DNA of 64,000 bases from Candidatus Magasanikbacteria bacterium RIFOXYC2_FULL_42_28 (GCA_001784435.1 MFQZ01000001.1:16032-80031), one strand, 5' to 3'. Shown: positions 22,995 to 54,992, numbered from the stretch's first letter. The notes: generated from the letters alone by a model not told the origin. Made by a program: numbers and translations.

Positions 22995-23026
22995 AATTTA
23001 ATTTTAGATTTATATGAGAATTTTTT

Positions 23027-23150
23027 CCTTATGAAACGGACAGCACGCTTTCCAATAGATACCGGCCTTTTAAATCGGCAGATATTCGCCAATGAGCGTG
23101 ACTATGTCCAATTTATCTTTGATTGATTGCGTGTCGGTCATGGGAAATTT
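23027..23150 (-). pseudogene. Degenerate duplicate of dnaG 5' end (first ~41 codons; premature stop)
   Basis: ~90% identical over ~124 nt to 20917-21040; translates [23 protein letters not shown] ; direct repeat flanking the SLT gene insertion. Confidence 0.8.
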
Positions 23151-23154
23151 AAAA

Positions 23155-25672: not shown

Positions 25673-26914
25673 TTCGTACCTAAGCGCTTCAATAGGATTT
25701 AATTTTGCCGCCTTCCGCGCCGGCACAATCCCAAACAACATTCCGATCCCAACCGATACCACACAACCCAAGACAATCGACGGGATACTAATAATAAAAT
25801 CCCAGTCATAGCCAAGCGAACGCACCACCAGTGAAATTATATAAGAAATAAAAATACCAGAAATAATTCCGATCACGCCACCAATAAAAGTTATCATCAC
25901 GGTCTCAACTAAAAATTGTTCAATAATATTACGATTGGTCGCCCCAACGGCTTTGCGCAAACCAATTTCACGCGTGCGTTCTTGCACCGCCGCGAGCATG
26001 ATATTCATAATCCCAACGCCACCCACGACAAGCGCAATCGCCGCCACGGCTGCTAAAAATAATTTTAAAGCGTTGGTAATTTGCGTAATTGCTTCCAAAC
26101 CCTGCGCCATTGATCGCACCGAAAAATCATCCTCTTCCGGCCGGTCAATTTTGTGGCGTTCGCGTAAAAATATCCGCGCGTCTTCCATCGCCGCGTCAAC
26201 ATTGTCCGGATTATCCACTTTTAAACGCGCGAAGCTAATATAATCAATGCCCAATAATAATTTTTGCGCGGTATTAAGTGGCACAAAAATTTGGTCATCT
26301 TGATTTTGAAAACCAGACACACCGCGTGTTTTCATCACACCAATAACATTAAACGAGGATTTTTTTATTTTAATTTGCGCGCCCACCGGATCTTCTTCGC
26401 CAAATAATTCTTTGGCCACCGTACTGCCTAACACGGCCACGCGCGCCATACTACGCTCTTCTTCTTCGGTAAAAAATCTCCCATTTTCAACTTTGGCATT
26501 TTCCACTTCCACAATAGACGCGTTAACGCCGGTAAAACTGGTGTCGGTTTGATTGTCACCCCAAACAATCGTATCAGTGCCTTTGACATAGCCGGTGCCG
26601 GCAACAACGTGCGCCGAACCGCTCCGAATTAATTCGCGGATATCACTGTCTTTCAAAGTCGTAACCACAATTCCCATCGCTGACGCCGGTGGGCCTTTTT
26701 CATCAGACGCGCCCGGAAGCACACCAATTAAATCCGAACCCAAACTTTTTACTTGATTTAAAATCATCCCCTGCGCGCCCGCACCGGCTGACAAAACAAT
26801 TATCACCGACATCACACCAATTATCACCCCAAGCATAGTTAAAAATGACCGAATTTTATTCCGGCCCAATACTCGCCAGATGGCGTGGATGTTGTCGAGG
26901 AGGTGCATAATCAC
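25670..26914 (-). CDS. ABC transporter permease, MacB/FtsX-like (paralog 2)
   Basis: 414 aa; same architecture as 23965-25209. Confidence 0.75.
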   Translation of the reverse strand: MIMHLLDNIHAIWRVLGRNKIRSFLTMLGVIIGVMSVIIVLSAGAGAQGMILNQVKSLGSDLIGVLPGASDEKGPPASAMGIVVTTLKDSDIRELIRSGSAHVVAGTGYVKGTDTIVWGDNQTDTSFTGVNASIVEVENAKVENGRFFTEEEERSMARVAVLGSTVAKELFGEEDPVGAQIKIKKSSFNVIGVMKTRGVSGFQNQDDQIFVPLNTAQKLLLGIDYISFARLKVDNPDNVDAAMEDARIFLRERHKIDRPEEDDFSVRSMAQGLEAITQITNALKLFLAAVAAIALVVGGVGIMNIMLAAVQERTREIGLRKAVGATNRNIIEQFLVETVMITFIGGVIGIISGIFISYIISLVVRSLGYDWDFIISIPSIVLGCVVSVGIGMLFGIVPARKAAKLNPIEALRYE

Positions 26915-31910: not shown

Positions 31911-32025
31911 TTAATTTCAAAATCCAAATTTCCAATTTCCAAAATAATGTCAAAGCCAAAATGTCAAATTTGATATTTTGATTTTGGATTTGATTTGACA
32001 TTGGAAATTGGAAATTTGACATTAC
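31911..32025. repeat. ~115-bp AT-rich foldback (inverted pair of the TTTGACATTGGAAATTTGGATTTTGAAATTAA motif) between pilT and cca
   Basis: Left arm ttaatttcaaaatccaaatttccaa...aatgtcaaagcc is reverse complement of right arm ...tttgacattggaaattggaaatttgacatt; solo copies at 839-866 and 60246-60288. Confidence 0.55.
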
Positions 32026-39815: not shown

Positions 39816-39950
39816 TTTTATCTACTAGTCGTGCTAAAATTGGAAACGTTTAAATCGTCCGCCAAAGGCGCTGCGCCTGCCTCTGGCACGGGACACCCGC
39901 CTGTGGCGGGGGCTTGATTACGCAAAAAAATAACATACAAAATAAACAAA

Positions 39951-40023
39951 CGGGCTATAGCGCAGTTGGTAGCGCGCGTGGTTCGGGACCACGAGGCCGT
40001 GGGTTCAAATCCCACTAGCCCGA
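39951..40023 (+). tRNA. tRNA-Pro (anticodon CGG)
   Basis: Manual cloverleaf: acceptor CGGGCUA/UAGCCCG, D-arm GCGC-AGUUGGUA-GCGC, anticodon stem CGUGG/CCACG loop UUCGGGA, T-arm GUGGGUUCAAAUCCCAC. Confidence 0.8.
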
Positions 40024-40028
40024 CACAT

Positions 40029-40370
40029 TAAAAAAGAAAGCAAATGCTTTCTTTTTTAATGTGTCGCAGTCACTGAACGACGTGCGAACCTTTTTTGAAA
40101 AAAATATTATTGGCCAATAATCGAGTTTCCGCGCCCCGTCCGGCGGACGGGGCAACAAACAAGTTTGTTTTTTTCTGAAAGAAAAAGCGGAAACCGTGAA
40201 CCCGTTTGCCCCGACCAAGTCGTGGCAAAATTGTTCGCGACAAGCCCCCCCCCTGTCCGTTTGTGTTGAAAATTACTTTTTGCCTACCACCGCCAGAGGC
40301 GGGCAGGCGTATCGGGCGGGCGTGTCTGAGTGGCTGGTGGGTGGATATTAGTATTTAAATACTAATACGC
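40029..40370. repeat. Left copy of ~340-bp inverted repeat (IR-L) bounding accessory island; begins with hairpin aaaaaagaaagcaaatgctttctttttt
   Basis: ~88% identical to reverse complement of 54624-54968; contains conserved hairpins (ccccgtcc-ggcg-ggacgggg; ccgcc-aga-ggcgg) and ends inward with palindrome tattagtatttaaatactaata. Confidence 0.85.
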
Positions 40371-40376
40371 ATTTTT

Positions 40377-40781
40377 TTAAAACTTATACCACTTTTTACG
40401 ATTACACTTCTGACACGCTAATTGTAGATTTTTTATATGGTTTGATCCGTAACTTTCTGACGGTACTTTTTTCAGCTTTCCATTTTGCATCATTGGTCTC
40501 ATCTTCCGCAAACTCTTACTTAATTGATTGCTCGCCACCGGAATAATATGATCTATCTGCTGACCTTTGGTAATTTTACAAATCTCGCAAATACCCCCTG
40601 AACGCTTTAAAAGTATTTGCAATAATTTTGGTTTTAACAAATTATATTCTTGTCTTTTAATCGCCGAACTGCGAAAATCAAAATAATCACAGTACTTGCT
40701 CCCCAATAATTTTTCGTCACCGCCGGTCAATTTATCGGCAAAATATTTTTTATCTGCCTTATATTTAAAATGTAAAGGCAT
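40377..40781 (-). CDS. HNH endonuclease
   Basis: CEIC...DHIIP...N...N...CQKCNRKK HNH zinc-finger nuclease motif. Confidence 0.75.
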   Translation of the reverse strand: MPLHFKYKADKKYFADKLTGGDEKLLGSKYCDYFDFRSSAIKRQEYNLLKPKLLQILLKRSGGICEICKITKGQQIDHIIPVASNQLSKSLRKMRPMMQNGKLKKVPSESYGSNHIKNLQLACQKCNRKKWYKF

Positions 40782-40791
40782 AATTTATAAT

Positions 40792-40965
40792 TTATTTTTT
40801 CCAATCCCTAACCACAAACCCACCACGCGTCTTTTTCACCGTCACTTTTTGTTTTTCTTTCCACCCCAACACGCGCAAAATTTCAATTGGAATAGTGACG
40901 GAAAAACTATCCCCTATTTTGATTATTTTTCTGATTTCTTGTTTGTTTAATTTTTGGAGTGGCAT
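40792..40965 (-). CDS. AbrB/MazE/SpoVT-type swapped-hairpin DNA-binding protein (57 aa)
   Basis: Manual translation MPLQKLNKQEIRKIIKIGDSFSVTIPIEILRVLGWKEKQKVTVKKTRGGFVVRDWKK; IGDSxxVTIP motif typical of AbrB/MazE fold; 10 nt upstream of HNH gene. Confidence 0.55.
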   Translation of the reverse strand: MPLQKLNKQEIRKIIKIGDSFSVTIPIEILRVLGWKEKQKVTVKKTRGGFVVRDWKK

Positions 40966-40999
40966 ATATATTTAAATAATGATTAAAAAAATTATCCTA

Positions 41000-41365
41000 T
41001 CAAAATTTTGACGCCTTTGCGAATTTTTTGGTTATAACCCAGTTTAAGCCAGCACCTAACCCCCAACCGACAAGGCCAATTAAAATAGGGAAATAAATAT
41101 GTAATCGTTCAAAATAAATTTCAAATAACGCCGCCGGCAAAAGTCCGAACAAAATCCAAAGATATTTATTTTTATCACCAAAAATGGTAAAAATAAAAAT
41201 TAGAAAAAAAATGTAGGCAAGTGGTAGACCAATTAGAACAGTCATATCAACATACCCGCCAATATGAAAAAAACTATCATAAAATTCCCCGACACTATAC
41301 GAACTAAAATAAGCCAAAACCAACACCGCCGTCAACAATAAAATATTTTTAACTACTTTATTCAT
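41000..41365 (-). CDS. Small membrane protein (4 TM), unknown function
   Basis: 121 aa, four hydrophobic helices. Confidence 0.4.
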   Translation of the reverse strand: MNKVVKNILLLTAVLVLAYFSSYSVGEFYDSFFHIGGYVDMTVLIGLPLAYIFFLIFIFTIFGDKNKYLWILFGLLPAALFEIYFERLHIYFPILIGLVGWGLGAGLNWVITKKFAKASKF

Positions 41366-41374
41366 AAATTTAAA

Positions 41375-43789
41375 TTAATTATTTAATAACCAGTTAAGAT
41401 CTTCTAATAGCACGGCATAGGCCGGAGCGGTAATGGCTTTGTCGCGTTTGTTCGTTAATTCTCTTAAAAAGTTTAGCCCTAAAATTTTGTCAATCCTTTG
41501 GGTCAACCTTTCAATTCTTTCCGCTCGTCTAGGGGCGGGAAATTTTGGTGGTTTGGCTTTGATGGTTTCAATTATCATTTCCAAACGAATGGCGTTTTTT
41601 AATTTGTTTATTAAACTATTTTTGGTGGACAAATTTTTTATCCAGCCCAAAATAAACATTTTTTCAATGTCGGCAATAGTACTGGACGGGGTGGCGATTA
41701 GTTGATAAATGATCGTAGCCGTGGCGGTATTGCCGGCGAAATCAGTGGCGGTAGCGAAAAAAATATGGTTGCCTAATTTTTGGGTGAACAAATCAATTGG
41801 CTCGCCCACGACTACTATTTTACCATCTAACGACCAAACCTGCGACTGGATGCCAGAGTCGGCGTCGGTGCTGGAAACGGAAACTGCCAAACTGTCCACG
41901 CGAGTATAATTCTGTGCCAAAGGCGAATTAATAGTTACTATTGGCGAAATAGTATCTCCAGCTGGTTTTACTTCTAAAACAGACGGCTCGGCATTGTCTA
42001 CTATAAACTCCAAATCGGCAATTTCGTCTGACAAAATTGTGCTTTGGTAATTACTACTTACGGATTGGCTATCGCTGACATAACTAGCGACAATCGTGTA
42101 TTCTCCGCCATCACCGGTACCTTGGGCTTGAATTTTATATTCGCCATCCAGTGGGTTTGGAACGGTAATGTATTCGTTGTCTGTAGCAAAACCAGAATAA
42201 AAAGCACCTTCAATTTCGTTGAATTCTTCGCCGGTATTAAAGTCCTTACCTACGCGCTTACCGTCCGGGGCGATGACGACAATGTCGGCTGGGGAGAGGA
42301 TTTTGATGAGGAGAATTTTGACATTGGGAAAATAAGAATGATTAACTTCAACCGGATCGTTAATATCTGATAGCTGACCTATGATTATTTTTTCCGCCTC
42401 GGTTGGTAAATTTCTATGCCCAGAATTATAAACAACCGTGCGTAAATCATTATTGTAGGCACTAACATATCTACTACTGCGCAGAGGAACCGTATCATCT
42501 CCATCGCCTAATTCCAACCCCAAATCAGCGGTTGTACCATCATATCCATCAGGGAATCCATCTTCCCACACTGGCTTAATAGGTGAATCAACTACCCGAA
42601 TCGTGTTTATGGTGTTACTTGTGTCTAAATTACCAACGATATTAAAAATTGAAACGCCGGAATTAAATAATCGATCAATATTAGCGTTTAACTCTTCTAA
42701 AAACGGATTAACCGGATAATTATTGGGATATGCACGCATTTGGCCGGTGCTTTTGTCTTTTAAATAATCATAAATCGGTAACAATTCTTGGGCTGATGCT
42801 ATTGGTTCACGATGAACATAATCAAAAATATCCATATAGCCGGATTTTTTAGCTTCTCTTGAAAAAAATGATTCTTTTAGGTTGTCTTCTATATTAACTC
42901 CAAACTCCTCCGCCTCCCAAGTTAAATACGATGCTGGTGCCCCCAAATGCGGCGTCCCTAAAAATATCAATTGGTCGACATCTTGAATATAATCATCAGA
43001 TTGGATATATTGCCGCGCGACTAATCCACCCATAGAGTGTCCGACCAAATCCACTTTATCGCACTGGCAATTTTCTTTTACCTCATCAATTTTTTCTTTT
43101 AATTGAAAAGCCGTGTCCACATTGGACTGGCGCCACTCATATGGGAAAGTAAATAAATCATAGCCGAGGCGATAACCATTAGCCACGAAAGTATCCACCA
43201 AATTATCATAGGTATGAAAAATAGGATCAATCACCCACTCACCATTTTTTTGTTCGCTTCCCATAACGCCGGGAATAATAATAACCGGATCGCTTTTTAC
43301 ATTTACTTCGTATTCGCCACTCGCGGGCAAGCGCGCGCTATTGCCAAAACTGTCGGTGGTTTCAAAATGAAACGAATAATGTCCGCGTACGAGAGTGGGA
43401 GATGATGTAAAAATATATTCTATGCCACCATAATAACCACAATTTAAATAATTTTCTTCGCCATTGGGACCAAAACCTAACCAACACTGATCCGCACTGG
43501 CGTTTCTGATCATTGGATAAGAGGCACCATCAATAACGACATTGATATCCAGCGGCGCGTCGTTGTCTTGGTCGGTATAAATCATTTTAAAATCCGGCAC
43601 GGAAGAAATATACCAAGAATATGGCTGCTCATCGATATAAAGATTGGCTTGGTCGTAGGTATGCGACAGGGTTGGTGGTTGATTGTCGGGGATTATAATG
43701 GCCGCCTGTATGACCAATGGCGCGAATAAAAACGCAACAAAAAAAGCCACGGAAATCATGACCTTTTTTGACCAAAAATTATGGTTCAT
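41375..43789 (-). CDS. Secreted alpha/beta-hydrolase lipase (GxSxG) with C-terminal Ig-like/Big-type domains
   Basis: Signal peptide MISVAFFVAFLFAPLVIQA; PGVMGS and VGHSMGGLVARQY lipase-class-2/PGAP1-like motifs; C-terminal beta-rich repeats (SVSSTDADSG...). Confidence 0.6.
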   Translation of the reverse strand: MNHNFWSKKVMISVAFFVAFLFAPLVIQAAIIIPDNQPPTLSHTYDQANLYIDEQPYSWYISSVPDFKMIYTDQDNDAPLDINVVIDGASYPMIRNASADQCWLGFGPNGEENYLNCGYYGGIEYIFTSSPTLVRGHYSFHFETTDSFGNSARLPASGEYEVNVKSDPVIIIPGVMGSEQKNGEWVIDPIFHTYDNLVDTFVANGYRLGYDLFTFPYEWRQSNVDTAFQLKEKIDEVKENCQCDKVDLVGHSMGGLVARQYIQSDDYIQDVDQLIFLGTPHLGAPASYLTWEAEEFGVNIEDNLKESFFSREAKKSGYMDIFDYVHREPIASAQELLPIYDYLKDKSTGQMRAYPNNYPVNPFLEELNANIDRLFNSGVSIFNIVGNLDTSNTINTIRVVDSPIKPVWEDGFPDGYDGTTADLGLELGDGDDTVPLRSSRYVSAYNNDLRTVVYNSGHRNLPTEAEKIIIGQLSDINDPVEVNHSYFPNVKILLIKILSPADIVVIAPDGKRVGKDFNTGEEFNEIEGAFYSGFATDNEYITVPNPLDGEYKIQAQGTGDGGEYTIVASYVSDSQSVSSNYQSTILSDEIADLEFIVDNAEPSVLEVKPAGDTISPIVTINSPLAQNYTRVDSLAVSVSSTDADSGIQSQVWSLDGKIVVVGEPIDLFTQKLGNHIFFATATDFAGNTATATIIYQLIATPSSTIADIEKMFILGWIKNLSTKNSLINKLKNAIRLEMIIETIKAKPPKFPAPRRAERIERLTQRIDKILGLNFLRELTNKRDKAITAPAYAVLLEDLNWLLNN

Positions 43790-43835
43790 ATTTTTTCCCT
43801 CCTTTAAAAATAAAATTCAAATATAGTTTTGACGA

Positions 43836-44222
43836 TCACATACTCCCCAATTTCGCCTTAACAATTTTCACCACCGCGTCCGGCCGCACATCCACTTTGG
43901 AAATAAAATCAATCGCTCCCATCGCTACGCCCTTTTCTTTATTGCCGGCCACCCGTACATTGGACAATAGATACACGGGTATATTTTTTGTGGCCGGATT
44001 ACTTTTCATCTCCGCTAAAATATCAAAGCCACTTTTATTATCATCCAATTGCAAATCCAACAATAATAAATCCGGTTTTATTTCCGCAACCATTTTACGG
44101 CCACTGTCAAAAGTATCGGCCGTTATTAAATCCAATCCTTCCACTTTAAATTTCAGCACATACATATTGGTAATTATCGGCTCATCTTCAATTAACAATA
44201 TTTTTACTTTTTTATTGTTCAT
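43836..44222 (-). CDS. Single-domain response regulator (CheY-like receiver)
   Basis: KILLIEDEP...DLLLLDLQL...K receiver motifs with phospho-acceptor Asp. Confidence 0.75.
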   Translation of the reverse strand: MNNKKVKILLIEDEPIITNMYVLKFKVEGLDLITADTFDSGRKMVAEIKPDLLLLDLQLDDNKSGFDILAEMKSNPATKNIPVYLLSNVRVAGNKEKGVAMGAIDFISKVDVRPDAVVKIVKAKLGSM

Positions 44223-44252
44223 ATTTTTTTAAAATAAAAATTAAACGCTTTT

Positions 44253-46058
44253 TTATTTTTTGGCCAAAATTTCCAAGGCCTTGGTCTCGGGTATAACCGG
44301 AATAGCCGGGATAGTAACGGTAAAAGTAGTACCCTTATCCACCCCCGCACTTTCAAGTGTAATCGCGCCATTATGCGCTTTCACAATTTTTCGCGCGATA
44401 AACAACCCCAAACCAGAACCATCCGGATGCACTAACATCGCCCGTTTGGCGCGTTGGAATTTTTGGAATAAATTGCGTTCCTCTTCTTCGCTTACGCCAA
44501 TACCGGTGTCTTTTATTTCAAATACAACATTCTCGCCACTACCATAAACACGCACGGTCGCCCCGCCTTTTTCCGTGTATTGGCAAGCATCATCAATTAA
44601 ATTCATAAATACTTGCAAAAGTAAAGTTGGATCAGCGGGGAAATACGGCGTGAGTTTCTCAGGCGCAATATATTTTAAATATAATTCTTTTTTGTCATAA
44701 TTCGGTTTAAGAGTGTTAATGGCTTCGGCGACTAACTTTTCCACATTAACCGGTACCAATTTTAACGATAACCCCATTTCTGCTTCCATCGCGTCCATTA
44801 AATCGGCGACGATATTCTTCAGACGGTCGGCCGAAATTAACATATTATTCTGCTGTTCTTTTTGTTCTTTGTCCGATAATTTCTCAAAATCGCCGTCGGC
44901 TTGCATTGACAATAAACCAATCATCGCGGACAATGGCGTGCGTAATTGATGCGAGGCAATATCCAAAAATTCGCTTTTTTGTTTGTCTAATTCTTTTAAA
45001 CTGACATTGGCCGTGTCCAATTGATTATTGCTCACTTCCAAAGATTCGGCCAGTCCTTTGAGCGCGGAATTTTTTTCTTTTAAATTTAAATTGGCGTCGT
45101 CTAATTTAAGGTTGGTGCGTTTCAGATCATTGGCAAGTTTGGCCATTTCTTCGCGAGCTTGAATTTCTTTTTTGACAGAACGAACAAGGAAATAGCCGAG
45201 CGTTGTCACTAAAATAAAAGTAAACACAACAACCACACGGACATTTTCTATCCGTCTGATAAATAAAATTGACAGCACTAAAAAGCCAAGTGCGGAAACT
45301 AACGCCTGAGTGCCAAACATTTTAACATTAAATGCGTTAAATTTAACGATAATATAGGCAAGGAAAGCAACAAATACCGGAGCACCGAAGAGGCCATATT
45401 GACCCAGTGTCCAATCTGCGGTAATACTTTGAACCAAATTGCCCCAAGAAAAAGCCAAAAGAAATAAAGAAATCCCCGAAACAATAAGCAATATCTGTTT
45501 CCTAAATTCTTTATCCGCCTTTATATATTTGGCCACAGAAAATATTAACATCCAAATTATAAAAATAAATTCTATAATATAGCCATACTGAACAAGTGCG
45601 CCCTCAATCGCTGCCCTATCGCAGTTAGTGTGGTCAAAGGCGGATACGCCCAAACTGGTCGGGGCGAGTAATACCATCGGCAAAAGCATTAAAGCAATTA
45701 TAATTTTATTTTTAAAATTTATATCTTTTTTATTTATAAATACATAAACAAAATAAAGACAGCCAGCGTAAATTAACGGCTCTATTAGTACTTCCAAAGC
45801 CCAAAATACCATTATCAATTCCGGCTTTTCGCTCGCCCACAAAACTAGGTCGGCATATACCCAAAAAGAAAAAACTGCCAAGATAAAAAATAGTGCTTGA
45901 TTAATTAGTGATTTTTTATCTTTAAGTAAAATAAAAAAACCGATAATCACAGAAAAGATTAGTGGCAGAAGGTGGGAATAGTAAACAAAGCTTCCAAAAA
46001 CATTCGCGGAAATAATTAAAAACTTTGCATTGTCCCAATTGCAAGATAAATAATCCAT
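44253..46058 (-). CDS. Sensor histidine kinase with N-terminal ~7-TM sensing domain
   Basis: H-box HQLRTPLSAM, N/G1/G2 HATPase boxes (DTGIGV, GSGLGL); long polytopic N-terminus. Confidence 0.8.
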   Translation of the reverse strand: MDYLSCNWDNAKFLIISANVFGSFVYYSHLLPLIFSVIIGFFILLKDKKSLINQALFFILAVFSFWVYADLVLWASEKPELIMVFWALEVLIEPLIYAGCLYFVYVFINKKDINFKNKIIIALMLLPMVLLAPTSLGVSAFDHTNCDRAAIEGALVQYGYIIEFIFIIWMLIFSVAKYIKADKEFRKQILLIVSGISLFLLAFSWGNLVQSITADWTLGQYGLFGAPVFVAFLAYIIVKFNAFNVKMFGTQALVSALGFLVLSILFIRRIENVRVVVVFTFILVTTLGYFLVRSVKKEIQAREEMAKLANDLKRTNLKLDDANLNLKEKNSALKGLAESLEVSNNQLDTANVSLKELDKQKSEFLDIASHQLRTPLSAMIGLLSMQADGDFEKLSDKEQKEQQNNMLISADRLKNIVADLMDAMEAEMGLSLKLVPVNVEKLVAEAINTLKPNYDKKELYLKYIAPEKLTPYFPADPTLLLQVFMNLIDDACQYTEKGGATVRVYGSGENVVFEIKDTGIGVSEEEERNLFQKFQRAKRAMLVHPDGSGLGLFIARKIVKAHNGAITLESAGVDKGTTFTVTIPAIPVIPETKALEILAKK

Positions 46059-46088
46059 AAAATAATTGCTTAAATAAATAGTGCTAAT

Positions 46089-46634
46089 TTATTTAGTGGG
46101 TTGTGCACGCTTGTTGGCATGATGCCTATGATAAGCAGTTTGAAAAAATTTTGGAATGTGTGGCAAATAATTGTCAAAAAAAGATTTCGGTAAAAATTGA
46201 ACCGATCTAACTACTTTTCTGCACCTATCGCTTTTGCAAAGACAACGCATATACCATAACTTCTCACTTTCAATGGTAGAATAATCAAGCGTAATTTCCT
46301 CACCCTGTTTGATGTGCTTTAGAGCCACCACAGTAACTGTGCCCTTAATAGCAGAATTGGGGTGGCAAGAATGGTTTAAATATTTAAATGGCACTGCCGG
46401 ATCTATCCACAAATTCTTTTTTATACCTATCCAGTCTTCACCATACATTGCCGTCTTCATGTCTTTAACCACCCAATGAACAAGTTCGCCTTTAATTATT
46501 GCCACTGTCTCACCCTTTTTAATATCTTTAGAGGCAAAAAGGCCAAACCCGTCAATACGGCTCTTAGATATATAAATTTTTTTATGTTTAAAATTTGTTC
46601 TATCCATACACGATTTATAAAATATGACATCCAA
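46089..46634 (-). CDS. SET-domain protein-lysine methyltransferase with post-SET Cys cluster
   Basis: NHSCHPN, EEITLDY, post-SET CLCKSDRC motifs. Confidence 0.7.
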   Translation of the reverse strand: MDVIFYKSCMDRTNFKHKKIYISKSRIDGFGLFASKDIKKGETVAIIKGELVHWVVKDMKTAMYGEDWIGIKKNLWIDPAVPFKYLNHSCHPNSAIKGTVTVVALKHIKQGEEITLDYSTIESEKLWYMRCLCKSDRCRKVVRSVQFLPKSFFDNYLPHIPKFFQTAYHRHHANKRAQPTK

Positions 46635-46654
46635 ATGAATAATAATTCAACCAA

Positions 46655-47032
46655 TTATCCAAATCTATAAAGCAAAGCCAGCGAAAATAATCCGGCGACT
46701 ATTCCAGCAATCTCGTAAGCATTTAAGCGTTCATTAAAAAATAATACGCCAACTATAACCAGTGCCAAAATCGTCGTAACTCCGTAGATAACACCGAGCG
46801 TGCCTAACTTAATATTTTTCATTACAAAAAACCACCCTACTGCAGTTAAAGAATATACCACAAAACCAATTATAAATAATTTATAATCAATATACTTGGT
46901 TTTATCATCGCCCGATAATTTGATAAAATAATCACCCAAAACGCCAACCAAACTTAAAGCGATAACTAATAAAAACGCATAAAAATAACTCATAAAATCA
47001 TCTAAAAAAATAATGACTACGGGGATGCGCAC
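46655..47032 (-). CDS. Small multidrug-resistance/DMT-like 4-TM transporter
   Basis: 125 aa, four TM helices, size/topology of SMR/EamA half-transporters. Confidence 0.45.
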   Translation of the reverse strand: MRIPVVIIFLDDFMSYFYAFLLVIALSLVGVLGDYFIKLSGDDKTKYIDYKLFIIGFVVYSLTAVGWFFVMKNIKLGTLGVIYGVTTILALVIVGVLFFNERLNAYEIAGIVAGLFSLALLYRFG

Positions 47033-47385
47033 TGGTCGGTGCCTTCATCTCCTGAATTCTCGCATAAAAACTCTAAGCAAGAGGCGTCGCCTGTGCAGGA
47101 AGGAATTGGGCAATCGCTAACTTCGCCAGCGCAATTTGGCAAATTATAGGCCTTCTTTTCTATTATTTTGTAATAACTTGTGCGCTCTTCTGGGTCAGCC
47201 GGACATTCGCTGTCTTCGGATGGATCGCACTCAGACACAAAACACCGTTCAGCCAATTGATCGCACGGCACTTGTAAACGAACGTAATAATCACGTTTAT
47301 TTACATAGCGATAATAAACTACCGCAATTGACGCGACTATGGCTGTAAAAAATATTATAAAAAATATTTTAGATTTTTTGTCCAT
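47017..47385 (-). CDS. Cys-rich secreted/membrane-anchored small protein
   Basis: N-terminal TM anchor, 12 Cys in 122 aa (CDQLAERCFVSECD...CAGEVSDCPIPSCTGDASCLEFLC). Confidence 0.35.
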   Translation of the reverse strand: MDKKSKIFFIIFFTAIVASIAVVYYRYVNKRDYYVRLQVPCDQLAERCFVSECDPSEDSECPADPEERTSYYKIIEKKAYNLPNCAGEVSDCPIPSCTGDASCLEFLCENSGDEGTDQCASP

Positions 47386-47477
47386 AATGTTAAAAATGCC
47401 TTAAATTAAGGGTACTTTTACTATATCACATTTTTCAAATATTTACCACCAACATTAACCCATGGATACTAGACGCT

Positions 47478-47503
47478 ATGATTTAAATATATATTTAAAT
47501 CAT
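47478..47503. promoter_or_regulatory. Perfect 26-nt palindrome ATGATTTAAATATATATTTAAATCAT
   Basis: Core ATTTAAATATATATTTAAAT identical to sites at 16525-16544 and 54624-54643; lies between two island genes upstream of the Cys-rich gene. Confidence 0.45.
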
Positions 47504-47506
47504 GAT

Positions 47507-47983
47507 TTAATTTTTGCCTTCAAAATCAATTAATATCTGTAAATAACGCTTTTGTAGTTCAATATTGGCATACTCTGCTGGAAACATTGAAATTTTACCA
47601 CCGTTGTTAATAATATCGTCAATGCCGTCAAAATAAAACCCGTCCAATGTGGCAATAAACAAATAAGACGGATTCCACGATTTACTCATTCGCACGGCGT
47701 CTTCTAAAACATATTTTAAATTTAAATTACGCATATATTTTACCTCAACCAGCTGAACTTTTTTTGTTTTCTGATTGATAACTGCGAAATCTGGTGCTGT
47801 TCGTAGCGTCTCAATAATGTCGTTATTTTTCTTATCGTGTCCTTGTTGGACTAATTCAGGAATTATTTTTTCATAACCAAATTCCAAAACCGTAAAATCT
47901 TTGGTTTCGCGCAACATTTGCGCGAAGATTGTCTCGGCAATTTTACCTTTGACTAAATTTCTGGCAAAAGTTATGTTGCTCAT
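47507..47983 (-). CDS. Small putative PD-(D/E)XK-fold nuclease-like protein
   Basis: Pattern GKIAE...PDFAV...VQLVEVKY resembling the D...(E/Q)xK core of Hjc/Mrr-like nucleases; inference only. Confidence 0.3.
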   Translation of the reverse strand: MSNITFARNLVKGKIAETIFAQMLRETKDFTVLEFGYEKIIPELVQQGHDKKNNDIIETLRTAPDFAVINQKTKKVQLVEVKYMRNLNLKYVLEDAVRMSKSWNPSYLFIATLDGFYFDGIDDIINNGGKISMFPAEYANIELQKRYLQILIDFEGKN

Positions 47984-47986
47984 AAG

Positions 47987-50900
47987 TTATTCAATTACTT
48001 TTTTTAATTCCCAAAAACGATTGCTGCCTTTTACTAACAACTCATTAATTAAATTAACAACACCGTCTTTAGTTTGTGAATTTTTATACAATGTTTTTAA
48101 TGCCGTTGTGATACTATCGCCATAAAGAGAATAAGCAAAATAACCAGGCCCAGCGACCACTTGTTGCATCAAATAAAGCTCCAAAATTATTAAAGTGTCT
48201 TCCGGCGCGGCATTGGCAAAATCCGGCAATCTATTGATGACGCCATGTTCCCATTCAATGTCGCCGTTACTTTTTTCCAACGATTGTTTAAAGTGCAAAA
48301 CCAACCATTTTAAATCTGTAAACAATCTTTGTTTTTCTCCAACCCAAAAACCAAAATAAGCAAAAATTTCATTTTCGCCGTCAATGGGGTTTGCCAAAAT
48401 CCAATCCCACAGGTTACTTAATTTCCCCCTAATAACATCCGCGTTAATTTTATTAACCAACATAAATTCAGCCGGATCATCACGGGATATGAAATGTCGC
48501 CCAATATACGATACGAACTCGCCGTGGCGTTTTTGTCCGGCTGTGTCCCAAAACAATTTAAATATTGGTGAATTAAAATCAAAATTACCATAATGAACAT
48601 AAGCCAAAGCCAAATGAATAGCCAGCCCTTCATCTAATTCTTTGGAATAATGACGCTTGGTATATTCGTTACTTGGCATTTCAATCAAGCGTTTATAAAT
48701 ATTACTCAAATCATCAAATAATTCTTCATACAAATCAGCAGTTAAATAACCCTCAACCGCGGCCAAAAATAAATCCTTTTTTGCTAGCGCAGACGAAAAT
48801 ATTTTGGGAATCATCTTTTTCATCCATTCTTTATCACGATAATAAAAAGTCGGAAGATAACGACCAAATAAAAACATTACCGCGCGAGTATTTTCTATTT
48901 CTAAAATTTGCTCATAAATCTTTTTAACATCTTCGCTAATCTTGGCTATATCTTCTTTGGTAAAATTATTTTTCCCGTCCAAATACACAAATAATGCCAA
49001 CGATTCAAACGCGCGGCCACGGACAGAATTAATAGCGTGAGTGAACGGATCACTGCCGTTTTCAACATTCTCACTTTCTGGATCAGGGTCAGAATGGCGG
49101 AGTAAATATGAAATTATAGCAAGGATCCGTTTCCTATTCTTTTTGAAATCAATCAATTGACCGCTATGTTTACCTGATAAGATAATTTTTAATAACTCGG
49201 AAATTTCACCATGCACGCCCGCCCAATCGACCAACCATGTGCTACCAAGCTCTGCCCTGCCTTTACGCACGCTTAAAAATTGTGTTAGCGCAGAAGAACT
49301 TTTGATAACATCAAACAAATCTAATAGTTTTTCCAAATCGAGGCCGCCACTATACTCGTCTTGACGAATAACTGCTTCAATGCCGTGTAAAAATGAATAG
49401 GTATAATGCTGATCTAAAATATCTCTCTGAAAAAATAAATTAGCATTATCAAGATATGCCCCCGGTCTTTTGGCAATATCCTGCACGAGCATATTGCCCA
49501 TACCGTCGGCACTTAGTGGATTTAAAAAATTCCGTTCTCCATCTTTTTTATATAAACTCTCCGGCGACCATTCCGATAATAATTTATCCACCATCGTTGA
49601 TATTTCCATTTTATTCAACTCCGGCAAATCTATCGGAGCACGCGGTCTGACCATTCCGCCAGTAACAGGTCCGTATCCTGCAATAGGTTCAAATTTTTGA
49701 TCTAATTCTTTGTCAAAAATTTGTTTCGCCATATTTTTTTTCACATCTGTCAAATTATCAAATATACTAGACAGGATTTCCCAGCCATCACTTTTATACA
49801 TTGTTTCATCTTTTTTATCTGTCCGCTCTTTACCGAAATAATTAAAAACCTGCTTAACGTATTCTTCTTTGTCTGTTTTGTCTAAATCAAAAAAGCATTT
49901 ATTTAAGGCATGACAATATTCTGGACTATACAACTCATAATATTTTTCTTCATCAGCGAATATATCAAAAAAAGCTTTTTTCAATTCATCTTTAAACACT
50001 TCCGGACACAAGCTCCATATAAAAAGACGGAAACGATAAAACGATTGAGTATTTGGCAAATTTTTTATATACAAACCATGCAATCTTTGGGCATCGTCGC
50101 ATTTTCCATTGAATAAGGACTTCGCTAATTTGGTAATTGTCGCTGCTAAATCGTGTACATTATCACGCAATGAAAGATGGGCTTTGATATTTAAATCAAG
50201 CACAAAAAAATCAACATCAAACAGATAATAATTTTCTTTGGCATCAAAATATTTACTATCTGATCTGCCGGAAGAAACTGCAATATCTTTTAAAATATTC
50301 AAAAGTAATTTAAATGTCCGCTCTACATAATCGTCGTCTATCAAACTAAGATAATTAAATACTTTTGTATGCTCTAAATCGTTAATATAAAAAGGATTAT
50401 CAGAAAAATTATTGGTTTTATCTCGTTCGGCTTGGCTACGAATTGTTAGCACCGCCTCGGCCAATTCTAACAATCCGCTGTATTCTTTTGCTACAGACAA
50501 TTCTTTGAGTATTTCTTCATATTCAAATCCCCACCGACTAAACGGTGCCAACAGTTTCACCCATTCATTATTCTTTATCATTCCTGTTAATTTTACAATT
50601 TGCGCAGCTGGTAATTTGGAACAAATATGCAAAAAAATATCAACTACTTCCGGATTAAAATTTTTGACCGACATGCTGACAGTCAAAATTATATCCGCGA
50701 CTTTTTCTGGATTATTTTCTGCCATTCGCTCTAAATATCCTAACTCTGGTAAGGAATATGAATATCTAGTTGGATCTGCAGATTTTTGTTTTATAGCGTT
50801 TAAAAAACCGCCATTCCACAACCAGTCAAGCCAACGTTCGTCGGCTTTTGTAAAAAAATATCTATATGCGTCCGAATTAAAAGATAAAATTAAAAAAACT

Positions 50901-51532
50901 CTATCAGCATCAACAAAAAGCGGATCGCAGACAAGAATCCTATCAATTATATTATGAATTGAAATTTGTTGAGGCAGCAATACACACCAAACATTTGTCA
51001 AAATAACAACCAATTTTTTAAAATGAGTGTAGCCAAATTTTGACACATCATAAAGTTCAACTTGTAAATTGTTAATTTTCTTAATAAAATCACTATGTTT
51101 CGACGAATCTCTAAAGTGGTGCGCAATTTGTGTAAAAATAAAATATAAGTCATTCAGAGTAGTAGCAATCTCATCTATCTGCTCCTCGTTGCTATCGATT
51201 TTATTTTCGGCAATTATTTTTTTCAAAAAATCTTTTCTATGCATCTCTCGACTTTCTTTTGGCAGATTGATAATATCATTTTTATACTGATAGAGAATTT
51301 CTCTTAATGAGTGGGCAGCTTGTGATAGATAATCTGGGTTCTTGGAACGATTATTATCGTTTAGTAAAAAAATAGCACCTCTATACAAAATAGATGGTGC
51401 GATAGCAGGACAAAAAATACTGACCCTATTCAGTTTATCCAAATATGATACCAACCACTCGATTTTTTCTTTAGGAATAAAATCTCCACGATCAGAAATA
51501 GCGTCCTTTAATTCGCTGTTCATAATTACCAC
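47987..51532 (-). CDS. Large uncharacterised protein (1181 aa), no recognisable motifs
   Basis: Long uninterrupted ORF tightly packed (3-nt gap) with downstream nuclease-like gene and 63 nt after putative REase; no Walker A/helicase/DDE motifs seen. Confidence 0.5.
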   Translation of the reverse strand: MVIMNSELKDAISDRGDFIPKEKIEWLVSYLDKLNRVSIFCPAIAPSILYRGAIFLLNDNNRSKNPDYLSQAAHSLREILYQYKNDIINLPKESREMHRKDFLKKIIAENKIDSNEEQIDEIATTLNDLYFIFTQIAHHFRDSSKHSDFIKKINNLQVELYDVSKFGYTHFKKLVVILTNVWCVLLPQQISIHNIIDRILVCDPLFVDADRVFLILSFNSDAYRYFFTKADERWLDWLWNGGFLNAIKQKSADPTRYSYSLPELGYLERMAENNPEKVADIILTVSMSVKNFNPEVVDIFLHICSKLPAAQIVKLTGMIKNNEWVKLLAPFSRWGFEYEEILKELSVAKEYSGLLELAEAVLTIRSQAERDKTNNFSDNPFYINDLEHTKVFNYLSLIDDDYVERTFKLLLNILKDIAVSSGRSDSKYFDAKENYYLFDVDFFVLDLNIKAHLSLRDNVHDLAATITKLAKSLFNGKCDDAQRLHGLYIKNLPNTQSFYRFRLFIWSLCPEVFKDELKKAFFDIFADEEKYYELYSPEYCHALNKCFFDLDKTDKEEYVKQVFNYFGKERTDKKDETMYKSDGWEILSSIFDNLTDVKKNMAKQIFDKELDQKFEPIAGYGPVTGGMVRPRAPIDLPELNKMEISTMVDKLLSEWSPESLYKKDGERNFLNPLSADGMGNMLVQDIAKRPGAYLDNANLFFQRDILDQHYTYSFLHGIEAVIRQDEYSGGLDLEKLLDLFDVIKSSSALTQFLSVRKGRAELGSTWLVDWAGVHGEISELLKIILSGKHSGQLIDFKKNRKRILAIISYLLRHSDPDPESENVENGSDPFTHAINSVRGRAFESLALFVYLDGKNNFTKEDIAKISEDVKKIYEQILEIENTRAVMFLFGRYLPTFYYRDKEWMKKMIPKIFSSALAKKDLFLAAVEGYLTADLYEELFDDLSNIYKRLIEMPSNEYTKRHYSKELDEGLAIHLALAYVHYGNFDFNSPIFKLFWDTAGQKRHGEFVSYIGRHFISRDDPAEFMLVNKINADVIRGKLSNLWDWILANPIDGENEIFAYFGFWVGEKQRLFTDLKWLVLHFKQSLEKSNGDIEWEHGVINRLPDFANAAPEDTLIILELYLMQQVVAGPGYFAYSLYGDSITTALKTLYKNSQTKDGVVNLINELLVKGSNRFWELKKVIE

Positions 51533-51595
51533 GTTGTTTTATTTATTTTAGCCATTATTGTGTTCCAACATTTTTTGGTAACAATATCTATATTT

Positions 51596-52654
51596 TTACC
51601 AACTGCCAGCTGTCTTAAGTTTAAAATAGCCCCGCTCTTTAATAAAAGGCAATAGCTCAGAATTAGACGGGAACTCTAAATTAAATTCTCTCTCAACGTC
51701 TCTTAGTAAAAACTTACCGAGATTATTCCTGTATTTATCACTTAAACAAATTTTATACCACTGATCCAGATCGTTCATGGTAATAATGCCTTGAATTTTT
51801 TCGCCCCAGCCCACTTGGGATAATAAGTTTTCTATCGCGGTTTTTTCAGAATCAACACAAACTACCACTATCCTATCGGCGGCAATTCCAGTGGCCACAT
51901 CTTCTATAATTTCAGGTGTCAACGTCAAATGTTTTACCTGGACAGCCAAACCAAAATTAGCCCACATATCCAAACCCCTGTCAGCAGCATTGGCCACGCC
52001 AGCCCTATATAAAGCCGCCGGCAATGTTATTTTGGTATTTTTAGCATCAATTCCCAAAACCATTTTAATAAAAGGCTCAAAATCTTGAAGAAGCTGCTTA
52101 TTGTCATTTAAAATTTCCAAAGTTATTTGCGCGCGCAATGCCCTAACAATTGTAGAAAATAGGGCATAAACTAAAATCTCATAAATTTTATCCGTGCTTC
52201 TTTTTAATCCAGGATCTAAAACAAAAAAATTGACTAACTTTTTTAAATCAAAAGTTGAAGCCGTTGACTTGCTAACATATAAATTCACATCGTGCACAGA
52301 AGACAATCTGGTGTTAAGGGCGTTGTAAATATAGGCCTCCACCAATCCACTTTCCCGTTTATTAAAATTCCCTAAATCACGCAATAAACTTGGCGGTATT
52401 GCGTTAATCTCAAAAATGTTATCCTGAAATTTTTGGCTTGACGTGCAAACTCTGCCGACCAAACGACCAGAAACCTCATCTCGCCATTTTTTTGAAACAT
52501 TGCGATAAGATTCCAAATCAAGAAGAACCCAACGTCTTTTGTCCGTTCTATGGTGAAATAAAATTTCAGCAATTTGAATTGGTTTGTACAAATGAACGCG
52601 TGATTTGCGTATTATTGTATCAAGCGCATTTTTTGCGATATTAATTTTAGGCAT
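51596..52654 (-). CDS. Putative type II restriction endonuclease (context-based)
   Basis: 352-aa ORF overlapping the 3' end of the C5-methyltransferase gene by 8 nt, typical R-M operon arrangement; possible D...QVK catalytic core (DMWANFGLAVQVKH). Confidence 0.35.
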   Translation of the reverse strand: MPKINIAKNALDTIIRKSRVHLYKPIQIAEILFHHRTDKRRWVLLDLESYRNVSKKWRDEVSGRLVGRVCTSSQKFQDNIFEINAIPPSLLRDLGNFNKRESGLVEAYIYNALNTRLSSVHDVNLYVSKSTASTFDLKKLVNFFVLDPGLKRSTDKIYEILVYALFSTIVRALRAQITLEILNDNKQLLQDFEPFIKMVLGIDAKNTKITLPAALYRAGVANAADRGLDMWANFGLAVQVKHLTLTPEIIEDVATGIAADRIVVVCVDSEKTAIENLLSQVGWGEKIQGIITMNDLDQWYKICLSDKYRNNLGKFLLRDVEREFNLEFPSNSELLPFIKERGYFKLKTAGSW

Positions 52655-54422
52655 ACACTCTTTCTTTTTTTATAATTAATGAGTCAATTTTAGAAGATTC
52701 TCTTACTGGCATTTTTTTCATTGCTTCTACCATCGCGCGAGCAACCGCTTGAATTTTTGGAACGACAACGCTATTACCGGCCTGCTTCCGCGCTTGTGTA
52801 TCAGGAACAACAATACGAAAAGTATCTGGAAAACCTTGGAGACGCAACAGCTCTCTTGGTGTCAAACGTCTTTCCCCATTAACTGTCAGATAATTATAAG
52901 AACCGTTGGCTCTTAAGGCACACGAGTATGGGTGCATTCCGATATTACCACCCTTATTTTCATGCCAGACAGACGGCTTTGGTGCCGGCACTTTCCCCTG
53001 CTCTACCAACCTCTTCTGCAATTTTTGTTTAAAACTTTCACTCAAATAATGTTTTTTATCTATCTGACTTTTTGGTTCCAAAATATCAGATAGCGTTTTC
53101 GTCTCTGAAACACCCGTGGGAAACTCAAAAGGATAATTTTCCTTGAAACCAACTATGATTATACGCTCTCTTTTCTGCGGGACACCAAAGTCAAGACCGT
53201 TGAGAACATTAAAGTGAACAAAGTATCCCAAACTTTTCAAAGATTCTATAATTATTTTAAATGTGCGCCCATCATCATGCGAAGTTAATTGTTTAACATT
53301 CTCCAACAAAAAAGCTTTCGGCTGTTTGGCTTTTAATATTCTTTCAACATCAAAAAATAAAGTGCCGCGAGTATCAGCGAACCCTCGTTTTTTGCCAATT
53401 ATACTAAACGCTTGGCAGGGAAAACCGCCGGTGAGGATATCGTGATCAGGTATTTCGTCCGCAGAAATTTTTGTTATATCTCCGTGTGGTTTATCCCCAA
53501 AATTTGCTTCATACATAACTTGACACGGCTCATCAAATTCGGATGTAAATACACACTTGCCGCCATTGCGTTCAAAAGCAATTCTGACACCGCCGATGCC
53601 AGCGAATAAATCTATAAAACGAAATGAGTTATTGTCGGTTGAAAAATCATCATTCAAATTACTTTTATAAAAATATGCTCGTCTTGTGTCTGTAAGTAGA
53701 CTAAACAAAGAAACTTGCAAACCTTCCGCGACATACTCGGCATTAACAAATTCTGTATTATTTATTTCAGCTAATACGCTATGTGCGTGGTCTTTTGACA
53801 CTATAATAAAATCATCAACATTAACACCCATTAATTGTCCGGCCTCGGCAATTCTTTTAACTACCTGCTTGTCTTCATCACTTGGACTCACATCACCGGA
53901 AGGGTGATTATGAATAACAATCACGCTCGCGGCTCGAAGTTCTATCGCCAGTGCAAAAATTTCGCGAGGGTGAACAATATTTTTATCAAGCGTCCCAATA
54001 AAAATTGTTTCTTTCTTTATCAATGCTTTGCGCGCATTTAAATACAAACAAACAAGATGTTCTTGTTTTTTATCTTTCAAATCGGCGACTAATTTAACCG
54101 CATCTTTTGCAGATAGAACCAAATCATCGGGAGCATTTTGTCTGTCATTAAGTCTTTTTGCAAGTGCCACCATGGAAAGAATCTGTAAGGCCTTTGCCTG
54201 TCCGATTCCGTGAATCTTCATTAAATCTTCAACCGAGACATTTATCAAATTATCACCAAACTTTTTAAGAATTTTTTGCGCCAAAACTTTAACGTTAACA
54301 TTTTTGGTGCCGCTTCCAAGTTGAATAGCTAAAAGTTCACCATCGGTTAAGGCATCTGGTCCTTTTTCTAAAAATTTTTCTCTGGGGCGGTCAAATTTTG
54401 GTGTATCTTTTAATTTTGTCAT
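52647..54422 (-). CDS. Fusion protein: RadC-like JAB/MPN domain (N-term) + DNA (cytosine-5)-methyltransferase (C-term)
   Basis: RadC HhH + JAMM motif VIVIHNHPSGDVSPSDED; C5-MTase motifs I FIDLFAGIGG, IV GFPCQAFS, VI ENV, VIII QKRERIIIVG, X GNSVVVP; single uninterrupted 591-aa ORF. Confidence 0.8.
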   Translation of the reverse strand: MTKLKDTPKFDRPREKFLEKGPDALTDGELLAIQLGSGTKNVNVKVLAQKILKKFGDNLINVSVEDLMKIHGIGQAKALQILSMVALAKRLNDRQNAPDDLVLSAKDAVKLVADLKDKKQEHLVCLYLNARKALIKKETIFIGTLDKNIVHPREIFALAIELRAASVIVIHNHPSGDVSPSDEDKQVVKRIAEAGQLMGVNVDDFIIVSKDHAHSVLAEINNTEFVNAEYVAEGLQVSLFSLLTDTRRAYFYKSNLNDDFSTDNNSFRFIDLFAGIGGVRIAFERNGGKCVFTSEFDEPCQVMYEANFGDKPHGDITKISADEIPDHDILTGGFPCQAFSIIGKKRGFADTRGTLFFDVERILKAKQPKAFLLENVKQLTSHDDGRTFKIIIESLKSLGYFVHFNVLNGLDFGVPQKRERIIIVGFKENYPFEFPTGVSETKTLSDILEPKSQIDKKHYLSESFKQKLQKRLVEQGKVPAPKPSVWHENKGGNIGMHPYSCALRANGSYNYLTVNGERRLTPRELLRLQGFPDTFRIVVPDTQARKQAGNSVVVPKIQAVARAMVEAMKKMPVRESSKIDSLIIKKERVYA

Positions 54423-54623: not shown

Positions 54624-54968
54624 AATTTAAATATATATTTAAATACTAATACGCCCCACACACCGCCCACCCAAACAAGCCCGCCCAATACACCCACCCG
54701 CCTCTGGCGGGGACAAGCAAAAAGTAATTTTCAATACAAACGGACAGGGGGGGCTGGTCGCGGACAATTTGCCACGACTTGGTCGGGGCAAACGGGTTCG
54801 CGGTTTCCGCTTTTTCTTTCAGAAAAAAACAAACTTGTTTGTTCGCCAGTCCGCTGGACTGGCAGGCGGAAACTCGATTGCTGGCCAATAATATTTTTTT
54901 CAAAAAAGGTTCGCACGTCGTTCAGTGACTGCGACAAAACAAAAAAGAAAGTGGGTGCTTTCTTTTTT
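54624..54968. repeat. Right copy of ~340-bp inverted repeat (IR-R); inner end is the 28-nt AT palindrome string, outer end hairpin aaaaaagaaagtgggtgctttctttttt
   Basis: Reverse complement aligns with 40029-40370; hairpin maintained by compensatory pairs (gccagtcc-agcg-ggactggc vs ccccgtcc-ggcg-ggacgggg). Confidence 0.85.
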
Positions 54969-54992
54969 GTTTGTTTTAAATTTTAATTTTAT

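Follow-up and report, generated by a model that had tools for sequence, protein, structure and literature searches.

The systems to which the present locus appears closest are restriction-modification (R-M) units that carry flanking inverted repeats and no transposase. Furuta, Abe and Kobayashi (2010) described R-M units with imperfect inverted repeats of 26-65 bp and 8-bp target duplications, one documented form of which is associated with a tRNA gene (PMC2853133). The DNA analyzed here, a 64,000-nucleotide stretch of Candidatus Magasanikbacteria bacterium RIFOXYC2_FULL_42_28 (hereafter the window), holds a gene island that by analogy most resembles these units: its R-M genes are bracketed by imperfect inverted repeats absent elsewhere nearby, and no mobility gene lies inside. 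The differences are considerable, however, as the arms are about 340 bp long (five to ten times longer), are internally structured and show no duplication. In addition, their outer ends are the least conserved part, and one and the same frame encloses unrelated multi-gene cargo in two genomes.

Other repeats invite comparison as well. REP/BIME, ERIC and the Correia elements of Neisseria are structured intergenic repeats of 35-160 bp that act as terminators or insulators and occur in tens to hundreds of copies per genome. Like them, the module described below is noncoding, palindromic and hairpin-forming, occupies the space between convergent genes and is readable from both strands; unlike them, it is known only as pairs, measures about 340 bp, contains a four-way junction and is tied to island borders. 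The att sites of large serine recombinases are about 50 bp long and flank their element as direct hybrid sites. A related island shares with such elements a recombinase at its border, beside a tRNA, and a TA break in the center of a palindrome of about 26 bp, whereas the repeats of the present locus are 340 bp long and inverted, not direct att sites, and tblastn detected no large-serine-recombinase gene in the window. Integron attC sites and the ends of IS200/IS605 elements are single-stranded DNA hairpins used as recombination sites. Some hairpins of the module likewise conserve structure over sequence, and cargo cassettes are likewise exchanged between fixed sites, but there is no IntI or HUH transposase here and the size, the multi-hairpin architecture and the highly conserved core are different; an attC identity was rejected on the grounds of the missing IntI, the size and the architecture.

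An earlier note on this DNA had placed an inverted repeat at 40063-40367, with copies differing at about 12% of positions. The repeat is real, the two copies being identical at 271/309 positions (87.7%) with small indels that amount to 7 gapped columns in total, and its arms are longer than had been thought. A repeat search of the window returned three collinear inverted arm pairs (40030-40344 versus 54656-54968), and with the flanking palindromes the arms extend over 40026-40367 on the plus strand (IR-L) and 54625-54972 on the minus strand (IR-R), each running from its outer to its inner end and each about 340 bp long. IR-L is the down-copy, which adjoins the last gene of the island, and IR-R, the up-copy, precedes the RadC-Dcm/HaeII operon. 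Within any one module, the outer and the inner end are unrelated. The interval 40063-40367 very probably lies within the left copy of paired mirror-image end modules, which frame a variable defense island in Uhrbacteria-like Patescibacteria. This conclusion is largely shown by the comparisons that follow, as is the one that the cargo has been swapped wholesale between genomes while the frame was kept.

The arrangement is not an assembly artifact, because across the arms the contigs from ENA, JGI and Logan match the window with 100% identity. All three assemblies have the island in the same orientation as the window; a second orientation, as expected of an invertible segment such as an inverton or shufflon, was not seen in any of them, and an invertase is absent from the window. 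No target-site duplication is visible, since the flanks, ...CCCGACA on one side and GTTTGTTTTAAATT on the other, share no direct repeat, although the palindromic end blurs the exact boundary. When compared with terminal-inverted-repeat transposons, the locus therefore has the inverted repeats and lacks both the target duplication and conserved outermost termini. A classical transposon end was rejected because the outer termini vary between genomes, there is no target duplication and there is no transposase. A MITE was rejected because own terminal inverted repeats and a target duplication are missing from each copy; moreover, the search of the window found IR-L and IR-R as its only two copies.

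Upstream of the tRNA-Pro gene, GC-rich mini-hairpins (CCGCC-AAA-GGCG and CCCGCC-TGT-GGCGGG, 39856-39960) show on the reverse strand a weak likeness to the hairpin-D segment of the module. This partial reverse match, 16 bits in nhmmer, was judged too weak for a third module copy. The JGI and Logan contigs both break at 39876-39912, that is, within this region and not at the repeat. Other repeats also occur in the window. A 68-nt family of ATTTGG/ATTTGA units (ATTTTGGATTTGATTTGACATTGGAAATT) is found at gene ends (812-879, 31957-32024 and 60220-60287), and one Logan contig ends inside one of its members. Inverted repeats of 42 nt made of TAAAC/TAAAT units (25213-25254 and 25631-25672, with a spacer of 376 nt) lie between two ORFs of 414 aa each (23965-25209 and 25670-26914). 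Finally, a 132-nt direct repeat, 91% identical (20920-21051 and 23021-23152), marks the starts of adjacent 616- and 641-aa ORFs, which are probably tandem paralogues.

The island between the arms (40377-54422, about 14 kb) has 36.5% GC, compared with 41%, and all its genes are on the minus strand. They encode a RadC-Dcm fusion, a HaeII restriction endonuclease, a 1181-aa protein, a 158-aa protein, a SET protein, a histidine kinase with its response regulator, an 804-aa lipase-like protein, a 57-aa AbrB/MazE-like protein and an HNH protein. The RadC-Dcm methyltransferase (52647-54422) belongs to a HaeII-type system and carries, fused to its N-terminus, a RadC (JAB) domain with helix-hairpin-helix motifs, an architecture unusual for a Type II m5C methylase. 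The 1181-aa protein (47507-51532) has no Pfam or PADLOC match and is followed by the 158-aa protein; another protein of 158 aa, with the same weak Pfam match (DUF4221), stands beside an AbrB-like gene in an unrelated contig (L012, 107-583). The two proteins may constitute an uncharacterised defense pair. No recombinase or transposase was found in the window with Pfam, PADLOC or tblastn.

On the outside, both host genes converge on the island. The tRNA-Pro(CGG) gene (39951-40024, plus strand) abuts IR-L with its 3' end, and a GlnII-type glutamine synthetase gene (54993-56003, minus strand), also a host gene, faces IR-R with its 3' end. The closest named homologue of this GlnII, 78% identical, is from Candidatus Uhrbacteria; the sample itself is Rifle groundwater. 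The loci around GlnII homologues of 83-90% identity contain neither the module nor the synteny. Because relatives this close have already lost synteny, the fact that the module has different chromosomal neighbors in different genomes is weak evidence of mobility.

Each module is built as a series of separate parts. From the outside inward, the frame consists of an outer hairpin, a chain of palindromic hairpins with a four-way junction, a G-rich/C-rich tract, the palindrome here called Pal and the cargo; on the far side, the AbrB-like gene and one variable gene are followed by the same module in inverted orientation. The first hairpin of each arm, T0, has a stem of 16-17 bp between an A-run and a T-run. 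In IR-L (40026-40061) its 16-bp stem is placed directly after tRNA-Pro, and in IR-R (54937-54972) it begins about 20 nt after the GlnII stop codon; three compensatory pairs distinguish the two. Next comes hairpin Ha (TCGCAGTC..GAC-G-TGCGA, 40064-40087), which is identical in both window copies and whose position in the relative is occupied by a different 18-bp palindrome. The four-way junction (40125-40194 in IR-L and 54803-54873 in IR-R) comprises a closing stem, GTTTCCGC/GCGGAAAC, around the hairpins H1 (40134-40152), H2 (40154-40169) and H3 (40170-40186), and the same fold is obtained for all four known copies and on both strands.

Several of the hairpins had been recognized in the earlier note. 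The elements it took to be unchanged, namely, CCGCC-AGA-GGCGG, the enclosing GTTTCCGC...GCGGAAAC stem and AACAAACAAGTTTGTT, are indeed identical in both copies, and the single-sequence folds contain the H1 pairing that it proposed to be kept by two double changes, from C-G to A-T and from C-G to G-C (CCCCGTCC-GGC-GGACGGGG at 40134-40152 in IR-L, GCCAGTCC-AGC-GGACTGGC at 54845-54863 in IR-R). Its list overlooked T0, with three more compensatory pairs, and the third hairpin of the junction, TTTTTCT-GAA-AGAAAAA; it is because this third enclosed hairpin exists that the enclosing stem closes a four-way junction.

Further inward, hairpin C (GTTTGCC.CGAC-CAA-GTCG.GGCAAA, 40204-40229) has an upper part that is invariant in all copies and a lower part that the relative has not kept. 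Hairpin D consists of CCGCC-AGA-GGCGG and a 6-bp extension (40282-40308; 54692-54718 in IR-R), and in IR-R five one-sided transitions in this extension give G-U pairs if the forward strand is read, but not the reverse. Inward of hairpin D lie a tract with a G-rich forward strand (40313-40344) and the inner AT palindrome TATTAGTATTTAAATACTAATA (40346-40367), a shortened form of the 20-bp Pal, ATTTAAATATATATTTAAAT, that ends IR-R (54625-54644). Most of Pal is thus lost from IR-L, whereas the inner junction of IR-R, ...TTTAAATTAGGATAAATT, is identical to that of the up-copy of the relative. The core stems are purely Watson-Crick with 3-nt loops, and several palindromes (ATTATTGGCCAATAAT, TATTAGTATTTAAATACTAATA) are loop-less. 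The module has retained seven to eight distinct hairpins, the palindrome ATTATTGGCCAATAAT has decayed without compensation both in IR-R and in the relative, and AT-rich stretches predicted to be unpaired, TTGAAAATTACTTTTTGC among them, do not vary between the four copies.

Further copies were sought in metagenomes. A scan with a 21-mer of the most conserved block gave 0 matches; because the collection also missed a JGI contig that contains the 21-mer (L009), absences from it are weak evidence. A second metagenome scan, with the junction pattern as the query, led to contig Ga0265296_1000972 (L011), which has two further copies arranged as an inverted pair. Identity between the two is 99%; against the window copies it is 82-84% when the entire aligned module is counted and 83-87% in local BLAST matches. 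They enclose an 11.8-kb island of the Type I R-M/GmrSD/Abi kind, with genes for hsdM, hsdS, DUF3644, AbiC (Abi_C), hsdR, GmrSD, PD-(D/E)XK and others, and a tblastn comparison of the two islands revealed no common protein except that of the AbrB-like gene. The layout is common to both genomes: the up-copy reads toward the first R-M gene, a unidirectional array follows, and the down-copy begins about 9 nt after the last island gene. Each inner junction is conserved according to the position type of its copy, the junction of IR-R being that of the up-copy L011c, although this conserved frame is known from n=2 genomes.

The outer side behaves differently. The outer approximately 65 nt are 59-67% identical between the genomes, compared with 86-93% for the interior, and the terminal hairpin of the window modules is replaced in the relative by unrelated sequence. 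The outer neighbors are also different, namely, DnaE, TsaD, tRNA-Glu and a serine recombinase in Ga0265296_1000972 versus tRNA-Pro and glnII in the window; one copy adjoins a tRNA 3' end in both genomes (tRNA-Pro in the window, tRNA-Glu in the relative).

The recombinase of the relative belongs to a cassette at L011 3777-5760, whose gene (3811-5370; PF00239/PF07508/PF13408) encodes Resolvase, Recombinase and Zn-ribbon domains and which has perfect 137-nt inverted repeats (3847-3983 and 5579-5715). The left arm of the cassette begins at the TA in the tRNA-Glu(TTC) discriminator position and also provides the CCA of this tRNA, while the right arm ends at GTGG-TA/TCAC (the slash marking the end), which is the loop, or center, of the outer palindrome of the module. 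If the two ends of the cassette were joined, they would make up a perfect palindrome of 26 bp whose half-sites resemble the outer palindrome. The dinucleotide TA is present at both cassette junctions and at the center of the outer palindrome in the relative; the homologous place in the window reads TGTGTCGCAG--TCAC, and the outer palindromes with a central TA are GTTGTAAAGTGG-TA-TCACTTTACAAC and GTTGTGTCGTGG-TA-CCACGACACAAC. By these features, the element resembles an IS-like cassette of a serine recombinase that crosses over at TA. It is also the one indirect lead in favor of the previous suggestion of a cruciform recognized by a recombinase.

The only protein common to both islands is encoded by the 57-aa AbrB/MazE-like gene (40792-40965, minus strand). 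Its product is identical at 54/57 residues between the two islands, and the gene is placed one gene in from the same copy type in both genomes. It is 81-100% conserved in seven of eight protein clusters found, two other matches being at 63-64%, and in the loci examined (40377-40965; L010 4821-5572; L012, L013, L018 and L019) a different gene follows each time, encoding HNH, 186-aa, 273-aa and 250-aa proteins and a NERD-like protein. A second, truncated copy occurs after hsdR in L010 (1440-1500). This pattern resembles that of a conserved antitoxin with swappable toxins or of a gene marking a cassette boundary. No further full module copies were found among the contigs with AbrB-like homologues that were examined: L012, L013 (SRR22388013, SRR22388305) and L017 stop at the AT palindrome, and L018 is without a module.

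Within the window, Pal is present at 16525-16544, 47481-47500 and 54625-54644, with half-sites at 40964 and 40352, and thus it bounds the cargo on both sides. Pal also precedes ordinary genes inside and outside the island (16525 and 47481), and it immediately adjoins the start codon (ATG) of the AbrB-like gene on the upstream side; with such positions, it probably serves as a promoter or operator, perhaps one that gives rise to leaderless mRNAs. Logan contigs end on Pal, indicating that it splits k=31 assemblies.

The pairing of the module was examined statistically. The folding z-scores relative to shuffled sequences are -8.1 and -7.6 on the two strands. In a permutation test, the structure was taken from one copy and the 39 substitutions were re-placed at random under four designs; 5 compensatory pairs were seen versus 0.6 expected (p<=0.003 in all four designs) and 7-10 broken pairs versus 14-18 expected, with a similar outcome on both strands. 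In total there are six double changes, of which three are in the outer hairpin, two in H1 and one in H3, the latter being a change from T-A to C-G in the relative (TTTTTCT/AGAAAAA to TTTTCCT/AGGAAAA). Four of the six are transversion pairs, for which a G-U intermediate is impossible, and all those seen sit in near-perfect palindromes.

The core alone gives a different picture, as 44/56 of its pairs never vary across the four known copies, which represent three independent lineages only. In a MAFFT alignment of these copies its covariation is not significant (121-206/500 shuffles reach the observed value) and one pair only is scored as compensatory; the gap placement hides two real compensations, including the second H1 change, which the single-sequence folds reveal. 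The divergence of the core between the genomes is 0.12-0.16 substitutions per site, about 4 times slower than that of the synonymous sites of the adjacent AbrB-like gene (dS = 0.58 over 35 synonymous sites, dN = 0.04). Because the core diverges more slowly than these sites, the module is constrained at the sequence level, unpaired stretches included. The element is thus structured, noncoding and under constraint. As for the earlier proposal of selection on secondary structure, the structure, the constraint and the kept pairing all stand, but the covariation of the core does not reach significance.

The noncoding status is confirmed by the short ORFs, which had been said not to be conserved: an ORF of IR-R encodes 85 aa and the same frame yields 27 aa in IR-L, with indels of 1 and 2 nt breaking every frame. 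Concatenated translations of all repeat ORFs had no protein match in 5.8 billion clusters, and a coding role was rejected on both counts. Searches for a known family were equally negative. With Rfam 15, which the earlier note had proposed to consult, no family passed its gathering threshold apart from tRNAs, and at E<=10 on 39900-40500 the best non-tRNA match had 25.7 bits against a threshold of 48. The idea of a guide or bridge RNA of a transposon finds no support: no Rfam model matches, and neither island contains IS110, TnpB, IscB or a transposase. Accordingly, an IS110 bridge RNA or TnpB-IscB omega RNA locus was rejected, as Pfam and PADLOC found no such genes in the window island and the island of the relative is likewise without them. 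No match to the module was obtained by blastn against phages and plasmids or in viral contigs by four DNA scans and two protein-anchored scans. A scan of genome contigs with the junction pattern gave a single match, to a Bacillota MAG whose homology ended with the pattern itself, and it was treated as a chance hit.

Whether RNA or DNA is the selected form was approached through the wobble pairs. Folding of the homologues with RNAalifold, as had been recommended, gave -75.2 kcal/mol with few broken pairs on the forward strand versus -64.3 kcal/mol on the reverse, so that substitutions are better tolerated on the former, mainly because the five transitions of the hairpin-D extension of IR-R are G-U there. 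The strand signal from wobbles is contradictory, however: in the relative, the base of H1 has a C-A mismatch that becomes G-U on the reverse strand, other changes point in that direction too, and the one-sided transitions favor the forward strand for one stem but the reverse for others. Because of this contradiction between stems, the wobbles do not tell RNA from DNA as the molecule under selection. During replication, template switching is able to generate perfect hairpins, to preserve them and to yield, in one step, substitutions that appear compensatory, transversion pairs included (PMC8794818). With the transversion pairs and the pure Watson-Crick stems, maintenance of DNA palindromes fits at least as well as selection on RNA, and the balance leans toward DNA symmetry when the 3-nt loops and the loop-less palindromes are considered too.

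Two features bear on transcription termination. On the reverse strand, the 50 nt that follow the AT palindrome (about 40296-40345 in IR-L) contain 56-60% C with 10-16% G in each of the four copies, in a genome of 41% GC; by composition alone, every copy thus has the C-rich, G-poor tract of >=50 nt characteristic of Rho-dependent terminators. For intrinsic termination, a hairpin followed by a U-run, a consensus scan flagged T0 of IR-R as terminator-like on the plus strand, that is, reading outward, and did not flag T0 of IR-L; the T-run belongs to the stem.

What the module does is a matter for tentative proposals, among which the one we prefer, although with limited confidence, is that of a boundary of the island backbone, acting in cis, at which outward transcription would end. 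Whichever way a transcript left the AT-rich foreign island, it would read the reverse strand of a module. It would meet the C-rich, G-poor and weakly structured tract, comparable to a Rho-loading site, then the strong hairpins and then the A/T-flanked outermost hairpin, so that transcription would stop before running antisense into the converging tRNA-Pro and glnII genes, which the outermost hairpin may in turn terminate. Pairing of the stems would be kept up by selection for stable hairpins, aided by template-switch repair of the palindromes, and the outermost palindrome may additionally be a recombinase target, as the relative suggests. Such a boundary agrees with an inverted pair kept around different cargo, with the constraint on the core, with folding z-scores near -8 and with six compensatory double changes and almost no disruption, as well as with the C-rich reverse-strand tract in every copy, the terminator-like T0 of IR-R, the converging host genes and the promoter/operator-like Pal. 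On the other hand, a terminator needs no 250 nt of sequence-level conservation, yet the unpaired TTGAAAATTACTTTTTGC is invariant; RNAalifold tolerates substitutions better on the forward strand; IR-L lacks most of Pal and its T0 went unflagged; and two genomes are known for the frame.

It is possible, if doubtful, that the modules are instead a substrate for DNA recombination, i.e., docking sites or long, imperfect terminal inverted repeats belonging to a nonautonomous island, which a recombinase acting in trans would integrate, invert or load with new cargo, the palindromes being sites for protein binding or cruciforms. An inverted pair around unrelated cargo at two different loci, a tRNA 3' end next to one copy in both genomes and Pal on both sides of the cargo would all be accounted for, and the serine recombinase cassette of the relative ends exactly at the center of the outer palindrome. 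In addition, Watson-Crick stems, loop-less palindromes and four transversion pairs out of six are more typical of DNA symmetry, and transposase-less R-M units with imperfect inverted repeats are documented (PMC2853133). Against this, the outermost 65 nt or so, the most important part of a transposon end, are the least conserved, the window shows neither a target-site duplication nor a recombinase or transposase, the two copies have diverged by 12%, three assemblies agree on one orientation, and a serine recombinase needs only about 50 bp, leaving about 250 nt unexplained. Another proposal is that the module is an sRNA gene of about 300 nt, present in two copies and transcribed on the reverse strand from the Pal end outward to the outermost hairpin, with a C-rich 5' region that would act in trans, its targets being, for instance, island mRNAs or G-rich ribosome-binding sites. 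Although we consider this unlikely, the strong conserved structure with its compensatory changes, a constraint about 4 times stronger than at synonymous sites and the missing conserved ORF speak for it, as does a gene-like layout of promoter-like Pal, unstructured C-rich 5' part, hairpins and a terminal A/T-flanked hairpin. However, nothing in Rfam matches even at E<=10, Pal is truncated at IR-L, the terminal hairpin has been replaced in the relative, the wobble-type changes give an inconsistent strand, the covariation of the core is not significant, and the bracketing of islands by an inverted pair would be left unexplained.

Less probable still is an undescribed structured element specific to Patescibacteria, either an RNA or a site that folds as ssDNA, coupled to the loading or exchange of defense cassettes at a Pal docking site, which would make the locus a cassette platform without a known integrase. 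The most improbable of the explanations considered is a neutral relic, namely, an old inverted duplication of intergenic DNA, left for example by island insertion or rearrangement, in which template switching keeps the pairing. Such switching does yield compensatory-looking changes in one step (PMC8794818), all the compensations are in near-perfect palindromes, and ATTATTGGCCAATAAT decayed uncompensated in IR-R and in the relative; but the pair persists in a second genome with different cargo and neighbors, the core evolves about 4 times more slowly than neighboring synonymous sites, its unpaired segments included, and the seven to eight hairpins are all kept.

The module is a test case for the question of whether "compensatory" substitutions in palindromes reflect selection on RNA or maintenance of the palindrome at the DNA level. 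Patescibacteria (CPR) have tiny genomes with few recognizable mobile elements, and how they acquire and exchange phage-defense genes is little understood. A frame that holds a Type II R-M island in one genome and Type I R-M/GmrSD/Abi in another would provide a handle on the exchange of defense genes in these bacteria, and the module itself a bait for finding further such islands.
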